Shown: piece after piece, positions 1 to 57,833 of the stretch
Position numbering within the stretch: position 1 is the first letter of the stretch
How the letters are laid out: each line of letters starts with the position of its first letter
From: Naegleria gruberi
Taxonomy: Eukaryota
Reading direction: 5' to 3' (one strand)
NCBI GenBank assembly: GCA_000004985.1
Contig: GG738908.1
Length of the DNA: 64,000 bases
Position numbers and translations under genes: made by a program
Notes under the pieces: generated by a model
What the model saw: only the letters and a program-made list of their open reading frames with translations
Databases searched by the model: none
Told to the model about the DNA's origin: nothing

Positions 1-1028
1 GTGAATTCATTATTTGAGTCTGGTGTACAATATTGATCTGATTTTGAACAATATTCGGCAAAATAAATACCAGCTCCAAATAATCCACTCAAACTTGCAA
101 CTCTTTCATCAGATCCATGCTCAGTAATTGCTTGAACGTATTCAGGTTTAGTTCCATGCCATAAATATTTTTCATTCATATCAGAATTCAATCCACTATT
201 TTTCATCCATTCGAATGCTGTTGATGATTTTGGAATTTCTTCAGTTTTAACTTGAATATAGTTTGGAGGATCTTGATATGATTGTAAATGATTAACTCTT
301 GCTGCAAAAGATGAAAATAAAGAATAATTTTCCACTCTATGAACACTTGAAACTATTAATTTAGAATAAAATGCTTTTTGAATCTGATCTCTACCTGATC
401 CGAGTGTACGGGTGTTACATGTGGAATTCATAATTTCTTGTACAATATCTTTCAAATATTGTGAAACATCAATTACATAATATCTTGAAGTGAATGATAA
501 GAAAGTATTATTCTTCCAATAACTTGGAAGTGAAACAATTAATTGTTGTGATTGGGTTGATGGTTGAAACACCTTCTCAATCAACCATTGAACACTTGAA
601 TAATGTCCATTGACTTGAACAATGGATGAATAATTTGATTTCTCATCACTTTTAACACCCAAATATAATTGACTGTTGAGATTGATCAGAGAAACTGAAT
701 TATGATCACATTTCTTGACAATCCATTGGTAATTTTTCCAAGCAGGATTATCCCATTGAATGATAGAAACTCCCTCATTCATATATCCATTGTCAGCACA
801 AACATATTTACCGCTGGCTTCACATTTGATGAGAACAATTAGATCATTCTGGTTGTTTCCTGTATCACTACTTTTTATCAAGACAAATTGACTACGACTG
901 ACACTTGGATTCTCCCATAATTGAAAATAGGCTCCATTATTTGAAAAATCACTAGAAATATTCAAATATTTCCCACTGTTAACATTTTTAATAGTAACAG
1001 GTGTGTTTAATAGTGCTTGAACATGCAT
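1..1028 (-). CDS. Ricin-B lectin (beta-trefoil, QxW repeats) + PARP-type ADP-ribosyltransferase catalytic domain protein. The 5' end is complete and the 3' end runs off the window start.
   Basis: Manual minus-strand translation from ATG at 1028: MHVQALLNTPVTIKNVNSGKYLNISSDFSNNGAYFQLWEN...IIQWDNPAWKNYQWIV...SSVQWLIEK (three QxW beta-trefoil repeats), then ...KYLWHGTKPEYVQAITEHGSDERVASLSGLFGAGIYFAEYCSKSDQY (PARP H-G-S/T and GxGxYFA NAD-binding motifs). The frame is open through position 1. It is absent from the ORF track because it is incomplete. Confidence 0.7.
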   Translation of the reverse strand, partial: MHVQALLNTPVTIKNVNSGKYLNISSDFSNNGAYFQLWENPSVSRSQFVLIKSSDTGNNQNDLIVLIKCEASGKYVCADNGYMNEGVSIIQWDNPAWKNYQWIVKKCDHNSVSLINLNSQLYLGVKSDEKSNYSSIVQVNGHYSSVQWLIEKVFQPSTQSQQLIVSLPSYWKNNTFLSFTSRYYVIDVSQYLKDIVQEIMNSTCNTRTLGSGRDQIQKAFYSKLIVSSVHRVENYSLFSSFAARVNHLQSYQDPPNYIQVKTEEIPKSSTAFEWMKNSGLNSDMNEKYLWHGTKPEYVQAITEHGSDERVASLSGLFGAGIYFAEYCSKSDQYCTPDSNNEF

Positions 1029-1270
1029 GTTGAAGAGATCACTGTGAAATATTGGTGGAAGATTTTTTTAAGTTGACTCTTTTTGCTTTGGTGAATGCTT
1101 AGCAAAGAATGCAGATGTTTGGATGTGTAAATGACAACTCGTCATTGCATTCGCACAGCGTTGCCTAATACTGATGAATCTTGGACCAGGTGATAAAGAG
1201 AGGCTTTTAAATCTGTAAAGGAGGTTAAATCATGATGAATAAAGCCATTGTAAAATTTCCAAACACAAAT

Positions 1271-2065
1271 TTATTGAGATAATTCTCTCAACTTGGTCAT
1301 TGCCTTGGAAATAATAGATGGGAATCTTCCATACATTGAAGCATCATAAATAACTTGTTTGATTTCAGATATTACCTGACTTTGCTTGATTGCTTTCTCA
1401 AGAGACATTTCAATGACATGATCATATTGACTTGGATTTGAGTTTTTAATTCCAACTCCATTGGCGTTGGCAGCAACAGAAAGTGATAAAGCAGTCATAT
1501 CACTCAACTCCAAGGCCCTCAAATAGGCATTCTCAACAGTTTGGTATAAAATGTTTGGATTTCCATTCTTGGTGGACATGGCATCTGCTGTTGTGGCCAC
1601 TGCCATAGCCATGGAAGTTGAATCTGCCAAATAAATTGATTTTTCAAAAGATTTCAACACAACATATTGATAGAGGAGTGGATTTCCATCCTTGCTTCCA
1701 GTAGCATCAGCGTTGGTAGCCACAGCCAAACTCAATGGTGTAGAATCAGCCAATTTAATAGCGCTCAAATAGGCATAATTAATTGATTCCAAATATGAAT
1801 TTAAATTCATCACTTCCATTGCAGATGCATCAGCATGTGTGGCCACAGCCATAGCCAAACTACTTGTTGAACATAAATCAGCAGCCTTTCTATAATAATT
1901 ATTGGCATCTCTGACTTGTCCAGCAAGAACTGATTGATCTGCCAATCCCAACAAATAAACTGCTAAATTATCATTCGTCTCGGAATTGACATGAACCAAA
2001 CTTCCCAAACAAATAAATATCAAGATGAGAATAACCAATTTTCCAATCATCATCTTTACTGACAT
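1271..2065 (-). CDS. Secreted Sel1-like (SLR/TPR-like) repeat protein
   Basis: ATG at 2065. The N-terminus is hydrophobic (MMIGKLVILILIFICLGSLVHVNS). It has 4-5 tandem ~36-aa repeats of the form YL.ADS....MAVATTADA.....G.GV..N...A..wY, which fit the Sel1-like repeat consensus. Confidence 0.45.
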   Translation of the reverse strand: MSVKMMIGKLVILILIFICLGSLVHVNSETNDNLAVYLLGLADQSVLAGQVRDANNYYRKAADLCSTSSLAMAVATHADASAMEVMNLNSYLESINYAYLSAIKLADSTPLSLAVATNADATGSKDGNPLLYQYVVLKSFEKSIYLADSTSMAMAVATTADAMSTKNGNPNILYQTVENAYLRALELSDMTALSLSVAANANGVGIKNSNPSQYDHVIEMSLEKAIKQSQVISEIKQVIYDASMYGRFPSIISKAMTKLRELSQ

Positions 2066-4896: not shown

Positions 4897-5167
4897 TTTT
4901 ACAATAGGGTTATCATCAAAATAATAATAATAATTGAAATTACCAATTGAAAAGAGATCTCGGATATAATACTTGACAATATTATGATGCACAAATAATC
5001 ATCATAATAAAGTATACTACTCAATAAATATATTAATTTATAATCACAATAATTCCTAAACAATTTCAAAAGTGTAGTAAGGTAAGTTGTATGAAACTTT
5101 CCCGCCCAAAAAGAATTATTTTGCACCAACACTGCTACAATATTTCCCACCAACACAATACAAAAAA

Positions 5168-5686
5168 ATGCAAAAATACGGTTCTAAGAAGATTGGTGCA
5201 ACCAGTGCTACATCAAGCAATAAGCAAAAGGTACAAATTGAATTAACTGATGAACAAAGACAAGAAATTAAAGAAGCCTTTGATTTATTCGATATGGATG
5301 GTTCAGGTAAAATTGATGCAAAGGAATTGAAGGTGGCAATGAGAGCACTCGGTTTTGAACCAAAGAAAGAGGAAATTAAAAAGATGATCTCCGGAATTGA
5401 TAATGGATCTGGTAAAATTGATTTTAATGATTTCCTTCAATTAATGACAGCAAAAATGAGTGAAAAGGATAGCCATGCCGAAATAATGAAAGCTTTCCGT
5501 CTCTTTGATGAAGACGATTCTGGATTTATTACATTTGCAAATCTCAAAAGAGTTGCTAAAGATTTGGGTGAAAATATGACTGATGAAGAATTGAGAGAAA
5601 TGATTGAAGAAGCTGATCGATCGAATCAGGGACAAATCTCAAAGGAAGATTTCCTCCGTATTATGAAAAAGACAAACCTCTTTTAA
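5168..5686 (+). CDS. Centrin (caltractin), an EF-hand Ca-binding protein of 172 aa
   Basis: Four EF-hands: [38 protein letters not shown] and [13 protein letters not shown]. The basic N-terminal extension [13 protein letters not shown] is typical of centrins. The in-frame ATG at 5168 is chosen as the true start; the ORF-track start at 5087 lies upstream in the same frame. Confidence 0.9.
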
Positions 5687-51365: not shown

Positions 51366-54300
51366 TTAAATTGTTGTTGGATTATCAAAATGAACATCAA
51401 TAACATCAATAGTAGAGAAGGTCTTCATGGCAATGCTATATGGCTGTCTGTGGCCTATGGTCGGAGTTGTAGAATCACGATGTTCAAATCTAAAAGCATT
51501 TTGAGAAGAATTTGATTGTAATGTGGAGGAAGTCACAACTCTTTCGTATTGAGGATTAGGAGGAGCCTCCTTGTTGGTTTCCTTTGCATTATCCCTCTTT
51601 CTCTTTTCTCTCACTATAATACAGCCAACAGTTATTGGAATAGCGATGAAACAACCACAACAGATAAATATTGGAATCAAGATTACAGCAGCTGCTCCAC
51701 TACTGTCATTGCTAAGTGGTGCGTTAATGTCATTTGGAAGAGTTTGTTCAAGGTAATCAGCAGTTATTCCAACCATTGAATTGTTCATGAGGTTGGAAAG
51801 AGAGGATAAATCACACAAACAATGGACAATGAGAGTTTGTTCACTTGCTTTGATATCTGTCAATAATTGGAAAGATGTCTTGACAAATTTACAACTTGAT
51901 TCAGTTTCAAAATTTGTAAAATCAAGAGTCAAACTGCATCTGAATGTTTGATTGGTTCTTGAACTGATTGGTGCAATATAGGATGGAATTGGAATATTGA
52001 TATGAACACTTCCTGTCAATGAATTTGAAATGTTCAATTGTGAAACATATTCCTTTTTTACATCTTCAACTTTTCTTGATAATTTGGTTGGGAATTTGAA
52101 TAATGAATTTGCAATATTGACCATTTGAATGGTGGAAATCATGGAAACACTAAAAGAGACCAATGAACTATTAGAATTGGAGAAGGAAAAACTATTTGAG
52201 TTCAGTGCTGAAATAGATGTTTTTACAGCATTAATAGAAACCAAATTGGATGGTTTTTCACCTGGGAAAAAGTCTAAAGTTGTCAATTCTGTTTTAGTAC
52301 CCAAAGAAATAGCAGCATTCACAATTGAAGATGCCAATTTGATGGTTGATGTTTCTGGAATCTTTGATGCGACATTTACCAAAATTTCAGAAAGTGAATT
52401 TGAAGAATCTGATGACCAAACAGCTGCCTTACTTGAAATATCAACAAACTTGTTAATCATGTCAACAGTTTTCGATGTAGTTTCTTCTGTTAAGAATTGA
52501 GGTTTTGAAAGTACTTTGACTTGGTTCATGTAATTGGACATGTCTTCAGAAGTGACTGAATTTTGTGCAAGATTTGTATCTAATTGAGTAGAAAGAGATG
52601 TTGCTGTTGCATTTAAGGCGAGTGGAATAATTTTAGAAATTTCACTAATGACAGAATTATTTTGGGCCACTGTACCGATATTAGAAACAATTGAAATAAC
52701 CAAATCATTGCTCTTATGGAAATCATTTGTTGGACTTGATAACGAGTTTGAAAGAGAGGAAACTACATCATTTGTGAACAAACTATTGGTACTGAACTCG
52801 ATGACGTTTGTCAACTTGATAGGCATTGTTAGTTTACCACCAGTTTTGGTGTCTGAAAAGAGAATTTTGAAATTTGAACCAAATTTTGTAGTCTTGAAGG
52901 ATATTGGGAAGGATACCGATGTTGCAACGATACTATCTTCATTAAGAAGTGTCATACTAATGGTAGAGAGTGGATTTCCCATGGTACAAGAAAGCTTTCC
53001 AATTGTAAAACCAACTTCAAGTTTAGAAGGAGTGATGGTACAATCTTTGAGTTTGATTTGATCAGATAGAGAATCTTGTACAGTGACTGGAACTGTAACA
53101 TCTGTAACGTCGCTGGTTCCCATCAAGGAGAGGGTAAAGTATTTACCAACATTTTGAATTGTTGAATCTTTGGATTTGAGTTTTCCGTTTTTATATTGCA
53201 ATGGGAGTAAGTATCTCGTACCACTAACAAAAATTGAAGCTAATGGATATCTTTCAAATTGTGAACCAATGTAACGAATATCAACTTGGCAATTAGAAGC
53301 TTGGGATGTCAAAATATCCAAAAAGTAAGTTGTAGATTCTTCCAAGGATGGAATAACATTATTAACTTTCATACCAGTTAAAGTTGCTCCAAGTACGTTG
53401 CATGATGATACATCTATGCGAGTATCAGGGATGAATGAAACCACTTGGGTGGATTTTCCAATGACAACTGGTTGATTTTCAGAATTGGTCATGAGGTTCA
53501 ATAAATCAGGGGCTGGTGCTACTGAATAATAATATGATTGGAGACATGCAACTGTAAAGGTATGATCAATGGTCATATTAAAATCAGGGTAAATTGTATT
53601 CACTGGTACTGAAACAGTTGCAGAGGAAGTCTCTAAACTAATCTTCCTGTACACGTGATTATTTTCCAACAGCAGGAAAACAATTGATTTTTGTAAAGAC
53701 TCTGCACCATAATAATTCTTGCAAGTGAGTGTAATACTAGGAATTCTGGATGGCTTATACACAATCAGTGATTCCTTGATCAAAACAGTTGGAGCAATCA
53801 TTTGTAATTGGAATGGAAGTGTTGTACCATCAATAAGTTCTATTGTGAATGACAAATTCTCACTGAATGTTTTTGGTTTGATAACAATTGCTTTTTCAGT
53901 TGTTTCCCAATTAAAATAATAAGTTGGATAGGTAGAATGGACTTGGAAGGAAACAGTTCTGGCGTCGACACATTCTTGATTCTCAGCGAAGAATTGGGCA
54001 AGGGGTATTGTTGCTTGCGTAGAGGTCATTACAATCTTGGTTGTTGGAACTTTGAGTAGTAATTTTGGATAGGATCCTTCGATTGGGAACGAAAGGTTTT
54101 TGGTGTATGTTAAACCAAAATTAGAAATCACACTGACAGACATGTCAATAGTAGAAAGCTTTAAAATATCTGAAACATATGGGAAAGTCCATTCCAATTG
54201 ATTTTGGGAATTTTGAATGGCATCACTCACTAATTTGTTAGACATTAAGGCAACTGAATTTCCTGTCAATTCCCAAGTCATTGCTTGGAAATTTCCATGT

Positions 54301-57300
54301 TCTGGTTGAGAATATTCAGCCTTAACATTGCTTTCAAAACATCTATTCATCGATTTGGAACTGATCTTTCCATTGGAAATTTTAGCAGAAACTCCATCAT
54401 AATAATGTTGGAAGGAGCTCAAAAAGGCACTCACATCTAATTGGACGGAAACGTATTTGTCAGACTTTGGATTCGACCAAAATACGTTGAACATTATTGG
54501 TTCTCTTGGACTGAAGATTGCATCTGATTGAGATACATATGCTTTGATGGTATATCTGTAACTGTGCAGGTCAGAATTCAATCTATTTTCTGTTACATAA
54601 CATAGCATTGGATAAGAAGTGGAACTCTTGGTGACTAACTTGTCAATATTTCCAAATATTTTCTCGCAATCCACCTTTGAACTAGTGTATCTGTAATTAC
54701 TATTGGTAACAATGCTGAAAGCTGCCAATTTTTTTCCAATTCCCCAAAGATTTTGATCCATATTCAAGTCAACTGAATAATCAAAATAGGTAGCTTGATC
54801 TGATTCCAAGAAATTGAAACAATCATCACCAAAGTGAGCTCCTATACAACCAGAACACGATTGTCCAGTGTAATAGTCGAGACATTGTTCACAATAAGTA
54901 CCATTGGATCTCGTATTGCATTTACAAACATTGTAGGAGGTACAAGTTCCTCTATAATTACAAACTGATTCTTCAGAGTGTGGTACATTGTCACATGTCC
55001 AATTTCCACACTTTGACCCATAGTAACCGGTAATGCAATCTTGGCAGGTATCTCCCTTAATAGTTTCCGATTCACAGACACAGATGTTTACAGATTTACA
55101 ATGACCTCTTGCTGAACAAACGGCTGGTGAAGAATTTTCAATTCCTCCACATGTCCATTTTTCACAATGAGTGCCATAATAACCATCTTCACAAGTTTGG
55201 CAATTACTACCAATGGATTTTGGTCTCGTACAAGAGCAAGTATCGAGAGCTGTACATATACCATTTCCATTGCAAACATTTGGATCCATGAAATGAGTTC
55301 CATTACATGTGAATTGTTCACAATTTTCACCAAAATATCCATCAGTACAGTTACAGTTATTGTAATCAACACATGTACCCTTAGAGGAACAGACTCTTGG
55401 TTGTGAGCTATCAGTTCCGTTACAACCAAAACTTTGACACATGCTTCCGTAATAACCAGTCTTGCAAGAACAAATACCAGGTTTCACACAAGTACCTTGC
55501 CCAGAGCAAACATCAGTTTCGTTTGCTACTTTCCCAAAACAAATTGGAAGTTCACAATTTTTACCTGCATAACCAGTACTACATTCACACAAGTCAATGT
55601 CCGTACATTTTCCATGGTTTGAACAGACACCATAACTACTCTTGGAAATTCCAAAACATGCGGCTTCAATTTCACAAGCATCACCATAATAACTACGATC
55701 ACAAGCACAGGTACTATTGAAAAAACAAGTACCTCTTCCATGACAAGATCCTGAATTGTAGCTTGACAAATCTTCACAAAAACCATAAGGAACACAAGTA
55801 CCTGAATCACTAGGAGAAATGGATGCAGAACAAGAGCAAGTGTTTGGACCAGTACATTTACCTTTTCCATTGCATACATTAGGGTTGGTAGCTTCGAGAT
55901 CATAACAAACAGGAGTATTACAGGAGGCCCCTGTGTAGCCACTTGCACATGAATATGTTGGCCAGTAGCCATAATGGTACCAAATGGAATCAACAACAGC
56001 GCCACAAGACATGGATGCTCCAACTAAATCGAGGCCACTAGGGACGTACTCAATATTACCACCCCAGCAACCATTTGCACCGTAGCTGTTCTTATTAGTA
56101 TCAAATCTAATACATGCCAATGTTGTGGATGCCCAAATCCAGAAACCATAGTCTCTATACTCGTGATGAATTTTAGTGATGTATTCATCATCAGCAAGTG
56201 TAAATTCAGTTTCCCGATTATCGCTGCTACCAATTGATTGACTGGTACCATCTCTAAACCTGAATTCGATACCGTACACATAGTCACTACTGTGTTTAAT
56301 TTTCATTCCTTTGATAAATTTAGATGTTGACTGCGGTGAACTCGTTTTACCTCCGTAGCTTGCACTACTTGTCACATACTGATATTCTGTACCTAAATAA
56401 TAACCATTAGAACTAAAAGACAAGGCTTTCAACTCTTTGGAAGTACCAGAAAGTCTAATGTAAATGATTGGCTTTTGCTCGCCTACATAATTATTGGAAT
56501 TCACAATAGGACTTGATGTTGAGACGATAAAACTATCAGTAATATCGTATTCTGTTGATAGTTGTTGAACTTGAATGATTTTTCCTTCCAGATGTCTGAA
56601 TCGGAATTGATACACACTCTTAGATTGAGCTTGCATAGTTCTGCTATTACCATCCACAATTGAATAAGGATCAGCGCTTGTACCAGTAATGACTGTTGCA
56701 ATGGTATTGTCTCGCTCAATTGACAATGAATGGATCTTGAAATAATCTTGTTTGAACTGGGAAATTTGAATGAAATTCTTTGTGAATGTAAATGTTGTCT
56801 TGATATAATCATATTGCAGAAGGAAGATATTTGGAGAGATTGCATTTCCATTCAAAAAACAATCAGCTTCACATGACAAGAGAATGTTGAGCTTCCCCAA
56901 TGAATCGAACTTAATTTTTGGAGTGGGAATCATGGCAGATGAACTGTGGAAGACTTTCTGAGAATGGACATAGGATCCATCCTTTGGATTTAACAATAGA
57001 ACCCATAGGGAAGACTGATGAGGTAAATATTCCTTATTTTCCCCATCAATGATCAGTTGGAATTCTTGTGTATCAAAGAACGAAACAACAACCCGATCAT
57101 ATACTACCGAGTAGTGAATAGCCATAACTTTACACTTTGTTGTGTCTTCACAACCTGCTATTGCCTTCTTTAGAATAACTTGATCTTTGTAAATGATCAA
57201 GTAAATTTGATATCCTTTCTGCATAATGAAGTATCTCTTTCCGCTTACATTGTCAATGTACATTGCTTGAATAGAATATCCAATCAAATTACTAAAAGGG

Positions 57301-57833
57301 GTGACAGATTGTACAACTCCTGCTGATGAAAGAGTTGCCATAAATGGTATATTCTTAAAGCTTGAGAATGTCTGTGAGGTGACTTGGAAACGTCCAATAC
57401 AAACTGGATACTGAGCAACAAAATACCCAGTCAACAATATATCTGCTTTGGAATTGAGGAATGTAATAGATTCACCCTCAAGTTGTGCTCCTCCACAATC
57501 ATCCTTTATGTTTACCTCCAGGAAGGAATTAAAAGTTTCACCAGAACGAACATTTCCCTGAATCATCACTCGTGAGGAATTTAAACTTGGAAGTGGAACC
57601 TTAATCAACATGTAATGTTTTTCATTATTGTCGGAAATTACATCCACAAAGGACGAACCCTCCCCAAGTGTTTTAATGGTACTGTCAAAATTCTTGATGA
57701 GGCCGTATTTGCAGTTTGGTGCAATCTTGGTCATATCTGAGCAAGGTTCCCCTAAACCTGCCTTAATCACATCAAATATTGAACATGATACAATTAAGAA
57801 AATTAGAACAAACGGCAAGACTGTTGTTCTCAT
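51366..57833 (-). CDS. Giant (2155 aa) type-I transmembrane glycoprotein: signal peptide, beta-rich N-terminal domain, jacalin-like lectin-type segment, ~14 tandem EGF-like/tenascin-type repeats, a long S/T-rich stalk, a TM helix and a short cytoplasmic tail
   Basis: The signal peptide is MRTTVLPFVLIFLIVSCSIFDVIKA. The EGF-like repeats take the form C..G.C.....C.C..GY.G..C. The TM helix is AAAVILIPIFICCGCFIAIPITVGCIIV, followed by REKRKRD. ATG at 57833. Confidence 0.8.
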   Translation of the reverse strand: MRTTVLPFVLIFLIVSCSIFDVIKAGLGEPCSDMTKIAPNCKYGLIKNFDSTIKTLGEGSSFVDVISDNNEKHYMLIKVPLPSLNSSRVMIQGNVRSGETFNSFLEVNIKDDCGGAQLEGESITFLNSKADILLTGYFVAQYPVCIGRFQVTSQTFSSFKNIPFMATLSSAGVVQSVTPFSNLIGYSIQAMYIDNVSGKRYFIMQKGYQIYLIIYKDQVILKKAIAGCEDTTKCKVMAIHYSVVYDRVVVSFFDTQEFQLIIDGENKEYLPHQSSLWVLLLNPKDGSYVHSQKVFHSSSAMIPTPKIKFDSLGKLNILLSCEADCFLNGNAISPNIFLLQYDYIKTTFTFTKNFIQISQFKQDYFKIHSLSIERDNTIATVITGTSADPYSIVDGNSRTMQAQSKSVYQFRFRHLEGKIIQVQQLSTEYDITDSFIVSTSSPIVNSNNYVGEQKPIIYIRLSGTSKELKALSFSSNGYYLGTEYQYVTSSASYGGKTSSPQSTSKFIKGMKIKHSSDYVYGIEFRFRDGTSQSIGSSDNRETEFTLADDEYITKIHHEYRDYGFWIWASTTLACIRFDTNKNSYGANGCWGGNIEYVPSGLDLVGASMSCGAVVDSIWYHYGYWPTYSCASGYTGASCNTPVCYDLEATNPNVCNGKGKCTGPNTCSCSASISPSDSGTCVPYGFCEDLSSYNSGSCHGRGTCFFNSTCACDRSYYGDACEIEAACFGISKSSYGVCSNHGKCTDIDLCECSTGYAGKNCELPICFGKVANETDVCSGQGTCVKPGICSCKTGYYGSMCQSFGCNGTDSSQPRVCSSKGTCVDYNNCNCTDGYFGENCEQFTCNGTHFMDPNVCNGNGICTALDTCSCTRPKSIGSNCQTCEDGYYGTHCEKWTCGGIENSSPAVCSARGHCKSVNICVCESETIKGDTCQDCITGYYGSKCGNWTCDNVPHSEESVCNYRGTCTSYNVCKCNTRSNGTYCEQCLDYYTGQSCSGCIGAHFGDDCFNFLESDQATYFDYSVDLNMDQNLWGIGKKLAAFSIVTNSNYRYTSSKVDCEKIFGNIDKLVTKSSTSYPMLCYVTENRLNSDLHSYRYTIKAYVSQSDAIFSPREPIMFNVFWSNPKSDKYVSVQLDVSAFLSSFQHYYDGVSAKISNGKISSKSMNRCFESNVKAEYSQPEHGNFQAMTWELTGNSVALMSNKLVSDAIQNSQNQLEWTFPYVSDILKLSTIDMSVSVISNFGLTYTKNLSFPIEGSYPKLLLKVPTTKIVMTSTQATIPLAQFFAENQECVDARTVSFQVHSTYPTYYFNWETTEKAIVIKPKTFSENLSFTIELIDGTTLPFQLQMIAPTVLIKESLIVYKPSRIPSITLTCKNYYGAESLQKSIVFLLLENNHVYRKISLETSSATVSVPVNTIYPDFNMTIDHTFTVACLQSYYYSVAPAPDLLNLMTNSENQPVVIGKSTQVVSFIPDTRIDVSSCNVLGATLTGMKVNNVIPSLEESTTYFLDILTSQASNCQVDIRYIGSQFERYPLASIFVSGTRYLLPLQYKNGKLKSKDSTIQNVGKYFTLSLMGTSDVTDVTVPVTVQDSLSDQIKLKDCTITPSKLEVGFTIGKLSCTMGNPLSTISMTLLNEDSIVATSVSFPISFKTTKFGSNFKILFSDTKTGGKLTMPIKLTNVIEFSTNSLFTNDVVSSLSNSLSSPTNDFHKSNDLVISIVSNIGTVAQNNSVISEISKIIPLALNATATSLSTQLDTNLAQNSVTSEDMSNYMNQVKVLSKPQFLTEETTSKTVDMINKFVDISSKAAVWSSDSSNSLSEILVNVASKIPETSTIKLASSIVNAAISLGTKTELTTLDFFPGEKPSNLVSINAVKTSISALNSNSFSFSNSNSSLVSFSVSMISTIQMVNIANSLFKFPTKLSRKVEDVKKEYVSQLNISNSLTGSVHINIPIPSYIAPISSRTNQTFRCSLTLDFTNFETESSCKFVKTSFQLLTDIKASEQTLIVHCLCDLSSLSNLMNNSMVGITADYLEQTLPNDINAPLSNDSSGAAAVILIPIFICCGCFIAIPITVGCIIVREKRKRDNAKETNKEAPPNPQYERVVTSSTLQSNSSQNAFRFEHRDSTTPTIGHRQPYSIAMKTFSTIDVIDVHFDNPTTI

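Follow-up and report, generated by a model that had tools for sequence, protein, structure and literature searches.

What kind of protein is encoded where, at one end of a 64,000-nucleotide stretch of Naegleria gruberi contig GG738908.1 (GenBank assembly GCA_000004985.1), a ricin-type beta-trefoil runs into the catalytic domain of a poly(ADP-ribose) polymerase (PARP)? The whole stretch is referred to below as the window, and the gene, which is read from the minus strand and leaves the window at base 1, as the ricin-PARP gene. A preliminary description, based on the letters of the DNA, had recognized the fusion and likened its product to a toxin-like or secreted mono-ADP-ribosyltransferase (mono-ART). 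Our analysis confirmed the fusion, as both domains score above their Pfam thresholds and both folds were recovered by fold search, and the position of a trefoil N-terminal to a PARP domain is indeed a non-standard PARP architecture. The functional interpretation is not supported, since the protein has no signal peptide, its catalytic domain is tankyrase-like and of the H-Y-E (His-Tyr-Glu) kind, and its nearest relatives are paralogues and kinase-PARP fusions of Naegleria. We regard the gene, as a probable though far from certain interpretation, as a domain-shuffled, trefoil-targeted intracellular ADP-ribosyltransferase of the N. gruberi lineage, whose copy in the window is most likely inactive.

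The gene, its deposited product and an intact allele

The features defining the gene and its domains are the following (aa, amino acid residues; ORF, open reading frame; pLDDT, predicted local distance difference test).

1..1028, minus strand: ricin-PARP gene, first 342 codons, ATG at 1028..1026, ORF open through base 1
1068..1070, minus strand: in-frame stop codon, 14 codons 5' of the ATG (translation and sequence)
570..1004, minus strand: ricin-type beta-trefoil, aa 9-153 (Pfam, phmmer, AlphaFold, Foldseek)
537..569, minus strand: Q/S/T/P-rich linker, aa 154-164 (FQPSTQSQQLI), pLDDT below 50
1..536, minus strand: PARP catalytic domain, N-terminal two-thirds, aa 165-342 (Pfam PF00644, Foldseek)

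The fragment translated from 1028..1 matches, along its entire length and with 100% identity, the N. gruberi protein NAEGRDRAFT_73830 (EFC38379.1 / XP_002671123.1 / UniProt D2VXQ3; P0001 in our set), deposited with a length of 370 aa. UniRef automatically names this entry 'Poly [ADP-ribose] polymerase', and matches to PF00644 and PF14200 are precomputed for it; that is, the protein and both of its domains are already in public databases, where it has been catalogued automatically and never studied. In the literature searched (Naegleria, PARP, ricin/beta-trefoil, ADP-ribosyltransferase and lectin) neither the ricin-PARP protein of Naegleria nor any other ricin-PARP protein is described. NAEGRDRAFT_73830 is likewise missing from the supplements of two surveys of PARP evolution, and gene 73830 has 0 occurrences in Citarelli et al. 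(2010; PMC2964712).

As had been noted, the 3' end of the gene lies beyond the window start; only 28 annotated codons are missing according to the reference protein, or 73 according to an intact allele. This allele was found via P0017, a member of the same 90% cluster and the intact, 415-aa product of an ENA metagenome contig of 2228 bp (L001). Because the DNA of L001 is 97.5% identical to window 1448..1 and the upstream neighbour is shared, L001 is an allele or a close-strain orthologue. The coding differences between the window and L001 comprise 4 synonymous and 3 non-synonymous ones, the proteins being 99% identical over the remaining ORF. A gene-model artefact merging two genes was excluded, the ORF being continuous in two independent assemblies.

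A PARP catalytic domain with an H-Y-E triad

On the window fragment PF00644 was matched at aa 248-339 (E 3.6e-14, 53.2 bits against a cut-off of 26.7), and on the intact allele at aa 248-413 with 92.8 bits. The assignment of residues 230-340 to the PARP/ART fold, on which the preliminary description had staked its claim, is thus borne out, and the motifs it quoted were found as LWHGT at aa 289-293 and GAGIYFAE at aa 318-325. In the full-length AlphaFold model aa 180-415 mostly have a pLDDT of 80-95, and the best Foldseek matches of the catalytic domain are the catalytic domains of tankyrase-1/2 (E 1.7e-16, template modelling score (TM) 0.73-0.75). The best solved-structure sequence matches of the intact allele are again tankyrase-1/2 (E 1.2e-15), followed by PARP12 (1.3e-14) and PARP15; because PARP12 and PARP15 score almost as well as tankyrase, the domain appears to lie between PARP clades. 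The profile match, the ART fold and the conserved His and Tyr together place the protein in the PARP/ARTD family, in its H-Y-E clade. The two triad residues encoded in the window are located as follows.

156..158, minus strand: codon of His291, first triad residue (LWHGT), aligning with the HGS motif of tankyrase
63..65, minus strand: codon of Tyr322, second triad residue (GAGIYFAE)

The third residue is supplied by the part of P0017 that lies beyond the window ('...MTNERRPPEISFTNKRVYDSVIGHSNTSIHSYREFIVYDKCQCYPEYIIKYRRA'). In the alignment to tankyrase-1 the P0017 segment YREFIVYD pairs with YAEYVIYR, which puts Glu395 on the catalytic Glu of tankyrase, and the triad of the intact form is therefore H291-Y322-E395. 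Glu395 in the allele L001 corresponds to the poly-ART-competent state and not to the Ile, Leu or Tyr of typical mono-ARTs, which answers what the preliminary description had asked about this position. Column conservation was assessed in 66 sampled relatives, which also served for the Pfam counts of fusion partners given below: His291 is kept in 64/66, Tyr322 in all 66 and Glu395 in 60/66. The PxYW lead-in with which the domain starts is specific to the clade, with Pro168 present in 65 of the 66 sequences and Trp171 in 66/66.

The ricin-type beta-trefoil

The three lobes of the trefoil were delimited on the minus strand.

About 873-1004, minus strand: lobe alpha
About 711-848, minus strand: lobe beta
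About 570-701, minus strand: lobe gamma

RicinB_lectin_2 (PF14200) was matched in 3 stretches, the best of them at aa 11-92 (E 2.9e-13, 50.7 bits against a cut-off of 25.6). Relatives of the trefoil were taken from an exhaustive HMMER search of 1.84 billion representatives. The only strong ones in sequence are P0022 and P0063, metagenomic proteins with several RicinB_lectin_2 trefoils and mucin-like Thr-rich linkers; with phmmer, the trefoil aligned to the multi-trefoil P0022 over aa 11-153 with E 2.5e-37, and to P0063 with E 6e-23. The full-length AlphaFold run left the trefoil unfolded (pLDDT <50 at aa 1-143), its alignment having almost no trefoil rows. Modelled alone, with six sliced trefoil homologues aligned, the domain reached a pLDDT of 89.6 and a predicted TM of 0.87, with 12 strands, the first of which begins at residue 10. 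Foldseek matches of this model include ThreeFoil (TM 0.80/0.93), CBM13 modules, Tpp80Aa1, MOA, SSA, RSA, HA33 and the MTX holotoxin (2vse), as well as cocaprin (7znx), a non-lectin protease inhibitor. The assignment of the beta-trefoil fold, made on the predicted structure, is solid.

As to the three QxW repeats claimed previously, the three lobes are there, and the sole strict QxW is QLW36-38, which sits at an internal aromatic position; the lobes close with SQF48, YQW102 and VQW148, where Gln and an aromatic residue are kept, not as a literal Q-x-W. In the lobe alignment alpha and beta retain the signature of the subfamily, NG..x-W-(D/E)-N-P ... Q-(W/F). The stacking aromatics Trp38 and Trp92 are kept, and that of lobe gamma is lost or deleted (IVQ-VNGH). 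At what we take to be the canonical sugar-binding Asp position of ricin and CBM13 the three lobes have Asn23, Cys77 and Gly124; the closest trefoil homologues likewise have Asn or Ser there. From these residues, sugar binding by one or two lobes seems plausible. The linker that follows has a pLDDT below 50 at aa 154-162 in the full-length model and at aa 158-162 in the trefoil model, and its residue Ser157 is Pro in the L001 allele.

Truncation of the reference copy

The deposited reference protein ends with '...MTNKKTPRN' at residue 370. Since this ending corresponds exactly to the -2 frame of L001, an intron is ruled out as the cause of the short reference protein. Every 1- and 2-nucleotide deletion and every 1-nucleotide insertion within ±30 nucleotides was tested on L001, and the loss of 'GA' at positions 1093-1094 of its coding sequence (codon 365) was the sole tested indel giving the reference C-terminus. 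This 2-nucleotide deletion is deduced from the deposited protein. It would cost 51 residues, among them Glu395 and those of the terminal strands (aa 381-385, 394-398 and 404-414 in the model), and replace them by KKTPRN and a stop. An aberrant substitution is found within the window itself.

111..113, minus strand: codon TCT of Ser306 in the HG(F)DER motif, TTT (Phe) in L001

The column of residue 306 contains Phe, Leu, Met, Val or Tyr in 66/66 relatives and is never polar. Considering that the deletion would remove Glu395 together with the terminal strands, and that a conserved hydrophobic residue has also become Ser306, the copy in the reference genome is probably inactive. The 370-aa deposited gene model is probably that of a frameshifted copy, and the 415-aa allele is preferable for studying the protein.

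The comparison with L001 also revealed a direct repeat next to the gene.

1174..1281: direct repeat of ~108 bp, upstream copy (L001 comparison)

In L001 two copies bracket the whole ricin-PARP gene, L001:168-276 and L001:1910-2018 being 95% identical; L001:1910-2017 is 94.5% identical to window 1281..1174. The 64-kb window has a single copy, and a second would fall just past base 1. The upstream copy starts at the last codons and the stop of the neighbouring gene. The repeat may be the footprint of a duplication or insertion that placed the ricin-PARP gene.

Cellular location, relatives and origin

No signal peptide was found when the N-terminal hydrophobicity, the start of the trefoil and the upstream frame of the ricin-PARP protein were examined. 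The maximal 10-residue Kyte-Doolittle mean of the N-terminus is 0.81, whereas the neighbouring gene's signal peptide reaches 3.89, the trefoil starts at about residue 9, and the in-frame stop at 1068..1070 rules out an N-terminal extension within the same exon. Judging from the domains involved, the kinase-PARP fusions and the other partners found in the clade would be intracellular signalling-type architectures. With no signal peptide, a closed upstream frame and such fusion partners, the idea of a secreted toxin is not supported, and the intact form is presumably intracellular, most simply cytosolic.

At E ≤ 1e-10 the exhaustive search yielded 578 relatives. N. gruberi 72525 and 80603 (P0002 and P0004), with 65-71% identity, are the closest paralogues; Citarelli et al. 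(2010) left them 'unplaced' in any PARP clade while noting that they retain H-Y-E (PMC2964712). Among the 66 sampled relatives the partner is a protein kinase in 21, other partners being PDZ, WD40, C2, zf-CCCH and AAA domains; the species contributing kinase-PARP fusions are N. fowleri, N. lovaniensis and N. gruberi. Thus described, the catalytic clade appears to be expanded in Heterolobosea and prone to fusion, with a near-invariant PxYW lead-in. A trefoil similar to the present one combined with the PARP domain was found, among the best 150 matches of the exhaustive search, only in the query's own cluster, and the Pfam scan of the 66 clade members added one further ricin+PARP protein, P0032, from a metagenome. 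Since more than 100 PARP domain architectures have been counted (Perina et al., 2014; PMC4245714), a new partner domain is not surprising in itself. The ricin-PARP gene is a lineage-specific domain shuffle within a known, fusion-prone PARP family.

Bacterial contamination or recent horizontal transfer of the gene is unlikely, its GC content of 34% being that of the window and its nearest relatives being Naegleria paralogues. There is no sign of a viral origin either, as a scan of viral contigs with the clade profile gave only distant PARP-like matches of 28-30% identity. Five IMG/VR contigs (L006-L010) were seen to carry PARP-like domains 28-30% identical to aa 285-414, with the pattern NExYLWHGT.

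Genomic surroundings

With a GC content of about 33% the window is AT-rich; ordinary eukaryotic genes are densely packed in it, and there is no operon-type context around the ricin-PARP gene. No paralogue of either the trefoil or the PARP domain was detected near the gene by tblastn of both against the whole 64-kb window. Other genes observed in the window include the following.

1271-2065, minus strand: ORF of 264 aa, immediate upstream neighbour of the ricin-PARP gene, whose N-terminus is a strong signal peptide (MSVKMMIGKLVILILIFICLGSLVHVNSE) in the 264-aa product
5087-5686, plus strand: centrin/caltractin-like protein with four EF-hands (EF-hand_7, E 2.1e-30)
51366-57833, minus strand: very long uninterrupted ORF of 2155 aa

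Internal repeats of the form 'AD.T.L.LAVAT.ADA' occur about five times in the 264-aa ORF, for which Pfam gave no match; by its sequence it would be an uncharacterised secreted repeat protein. The centrin-like protein fits an amoeba capable of a flagellate form, and several further ORFs of the window exceed 900 aa.

Proposed function and alternative explanations

According to the interpretation which we consider probable, a single ricin-type trefoil would have been placed ahead of a tankyrase-like H-Y-E PARP catalytic domain of the heterolobosean-expanded clade, in the slot that is usually occupied in the relatives by a protein kinase with a coiled coil, or by PDZ, ankyrin, WD40, C2 or zinc-finger domains. 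The intact 415-aa form would act as an intracellular ADP-ribosyltransferase, in which the trefoil serves for targeting or ligand binding, the most likely ligand being a glycan held by lobes alpha and beta, and brings the PARP domain to the target bearing this ligand. NAD+ would be held by His291/Gly292 and Tyr322, and the transfer would be catalysed by Glu395; in the reference genome the 2-nucleotide deletion in codon 365 and Ser306 most likely inactivate the copy. Of this picture, the identities and folds of the domains, the triad residues, the lack of a signal peptide, the family relationships and the kind of truncation were observed directly, and the activity, its mono or poly outcome, the glycan ligand, the cytosolic location and the genuineness of the deletion are inferred. 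Provided that the intact allele is active, recognition of a glycan or another trefoil ligand would be linked directly to PARP-type ADP-ribosylation inside a eukaryotic cell, a coupling not described in the literature searched. The gene also documents the free swapping of N-terminal targeting modules in the tankyrase-like PARP clade of Naegleria.

Several facts weigh against this interpretation. The H-Y-E triad alone does not show that the product would be poly- rather than mono-ADP-ribosylation. Because Asn23, Cys77 and Gly124 take the presumed canonical Asp position, carbohydrate binding is not assured for a trefoil judged by its residues. The 4 synonymous and 3 non-synonymous differences from L001 are too few to demonstrate constraint or decay. 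Finally, the deduced deletion could be an assembly or sequencing error, or belong to a single haplotype.

This last point leads to the possibility that the reference gene is intact, the premature stop of NAEGRDRAFT_73830 being a sequencing, assembly or haplotype artefact and the enzyme of the window active. We find this doubtful, even though the remaining ORF is open with 99% protein identity to the intact allele and the deletion sits in a purine-rich run (GAAAGAAGA): the loss is of 2 nucleotides, not the more usual 1-nucleotide homopolymer error, and the same copy carries the F306S change, read directly from the window DNA, in a column that is never polar in 66 relatives. Somewhat unlikely, too, is that the trefoil is no lectin at all and works as a protein- or lipid-binding adaptor, recruiting the PARP domain to a partner in the manner of the tankyrase ankyrin clusters. 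The residues at the Asp position (Asn, Cys and Gly in the three lobes), the missing stacking aromatic of lobe gamma, the existence of non-lectin beta-trefoil binders such as the protease inhibitor cocaprin (7znx) and the presence of protein-interaction modules (PDZ, WD40, Ank) at the equivalent N-terminal position within the clade would all agree with an adaptor; on the other hand, the trefoil is closest in sequence to multi-trefoil proteins of the RicinB_lectin_2 type, whose linkers are mucin-like and Thr-rich, and shares with them the x-W-(D/E)-N-P ... Q-(W/F) signature in lobes alpha and beta.

By analogy with MOA, the Marasmius oreades agglutinin, one of the fungal cytoplasmic ricin-B chimerolectins, the protein might instead be a cytoplasmic defence or immune 'chimerolectin' acting upon ingestion by a predator, or as a sensor-effector that would ADP-ribosylate targets where it meets foreign or exposed glycans (of giant-virus fibrils, intracellular bacteria or ruptured phagosomes), which we hold to be clearly unlikely. 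The layout, signal-less with an N-terminal trefoil and a C-terminal enzyme, is MOA-like, and the trefoil's closest structural matches include MOA, SSA and RSA; the gene is confined to one lineage and is intact in one strain and frameshifted in another, as is common for conflict genes. Defence functions have been attributed to fungal cytoplasmic beta-trefoil lectins (PMC3355094), and rapid evolution of PARP genes in host-virus conflicts has been reported (PMC4038475). Against this, a comparison of two alleles is not enough to demonstrate rapid evolution, and the canonical sugar-binding residues are kept in part only. A specific version of the idea, in which the intact allele is a cytosolic glycan-sensing ADP-ribosyltransferase serving as a sensor-effector of amoebal innate immunity or defence, we consider quite improbable: here the trefoil would recognise foreign or exposed glycans (of giant-virus particles, intracellular bacteria, ruptured phagosomes or the gut of a predator), the tankyrase-like domain would then ADP-ribosylate nearby targets, and strains could do without the gene, which would vary among them, being intact in one and carrying a frameshift in the reference, as is often seen with conflict genes. 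Very improbable is the secreted or toxin-like, lectin-targeted mono-ADP-ribosyltransferase of the AB type, whose ricin domain would bind glycans of the target cell and deliver the ART. Toxins that couple a lectin to an ART are known, the trefoil has the MTX holotoxin (2vse) among its structural matches, and bacterial PARP-like H-Y-E toxin domains have been described (Tox-ART-PARP, PMC3482391). The present protein, however, has neither a signal peptide nor room for one; its H-Y-E tankyrase-like domain has Naegleria kinase-PARP fusions, not R-S-E lectin-ART toxins, as nearest relatives; it has a single N-terminal trefoil and not multiple C-terminal ones; its third triad residue is Glu and not Ile, Leu or Tyr; and the reference copy appears truncated before Glu395.

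Comparison with known systems

The nearest systems are found in the same species. The paralogues 72525 and 80603 (P0002, P0004) share with the ricin-PARP protein the whole catalytic domain, including the N-terminal extension PxYW ... TC..LG.GRDQ, and the H-Y-E triad; in contrast, they measure only 220-265 aa, and no N-terminal domain can be recognised in them where the present protein has a trefoil of 150 aa. FDP41_002250 of N. fowleri, C9374_000562 of N. lovaniensis and NAEGRDRAFT_47537 of N. gruberi belong to the same clade, with 45-54% identity. The kinase-PARP fusions likewise have the PARP domain at the extreme C-terminus, but their N-terminus consists of a protein kinase (with or without SNase) and a coiled coil, not of a lectin fold.

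Tankyrase-1/2 (PARP5a/b) share the H-Y-E triad and a near-identical segment, GFDER...G.FGAGIYFAE..SKS.QY. Nevertheless, the ricin-PARP protein is not a tankyrase, as it has no ankyrin repeats or SAM domain (Pfam gives only RicinB_lectin_2 and PARP), and the zinc-binding loop, which within the catalytic domain is unique to tankyrases (PMC8941426), is replaced by a short loop, with gaps opposite most of it in the tankyrase-1 alignment.

Outside Naegleria, the metagenomic P0032 (JGI 3300045138, contig L002, 69% GC) resembles the present protein in having a trefoil N-terminal to a PARP domain of the same clade, with 43% identity. Its trefoil (PF14200 1.8e-17, PF00652 4e-9) is of another subtype, not seen by phmmer with the present trefoil, and it differs further in extra N-terminal repeats, a long coiled coil between the domains and a GC-rich source organism unrelated to Naegleria; judging by these sequence features, P0032 is probably an independent ricin+PARP fusion. 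In L002:12-1916, which encodes it, two 'HWPC[ED]W' N-terminal repeats are followed by the Ricin_B trefoil, the long coiled coil and PARP; 3' of it lie an ankyrin-repeat gene and an overlapping DUF4197 gene, in a layout that looks prokaryotic. A scan of the genomes of 185,579 bacterial and archaeal species gave ricin-only matches and no close relative of P0032.

Toxins of the mosquitocidal toxin (MTX) and pierisin type also combine an ADP-ribosyltransferase with ricin-type trefoils, and MTX (2vse) matches the present trefoil structurally. These toxins are secreted or stored and consist of an N-terminal R-S-E-type ART followed by four C-terminal trefoils. In the present protein, unlike them, the ART is H-Y-E PARP-type and C-terminal, the trefoil is single and N-terminal, and a signal peptide is absent. 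MOA comes closer in layout, being signal-less and having an N-terminal ricin-type trefoil (TM 0.76-0.78) followed by a C-terminal enzyme; its effector, however, is a papain-like protease, and the sequence identity is 16-18% only. The resemblance to MOA is therefore an analogy of layout and not whole-protein homology.

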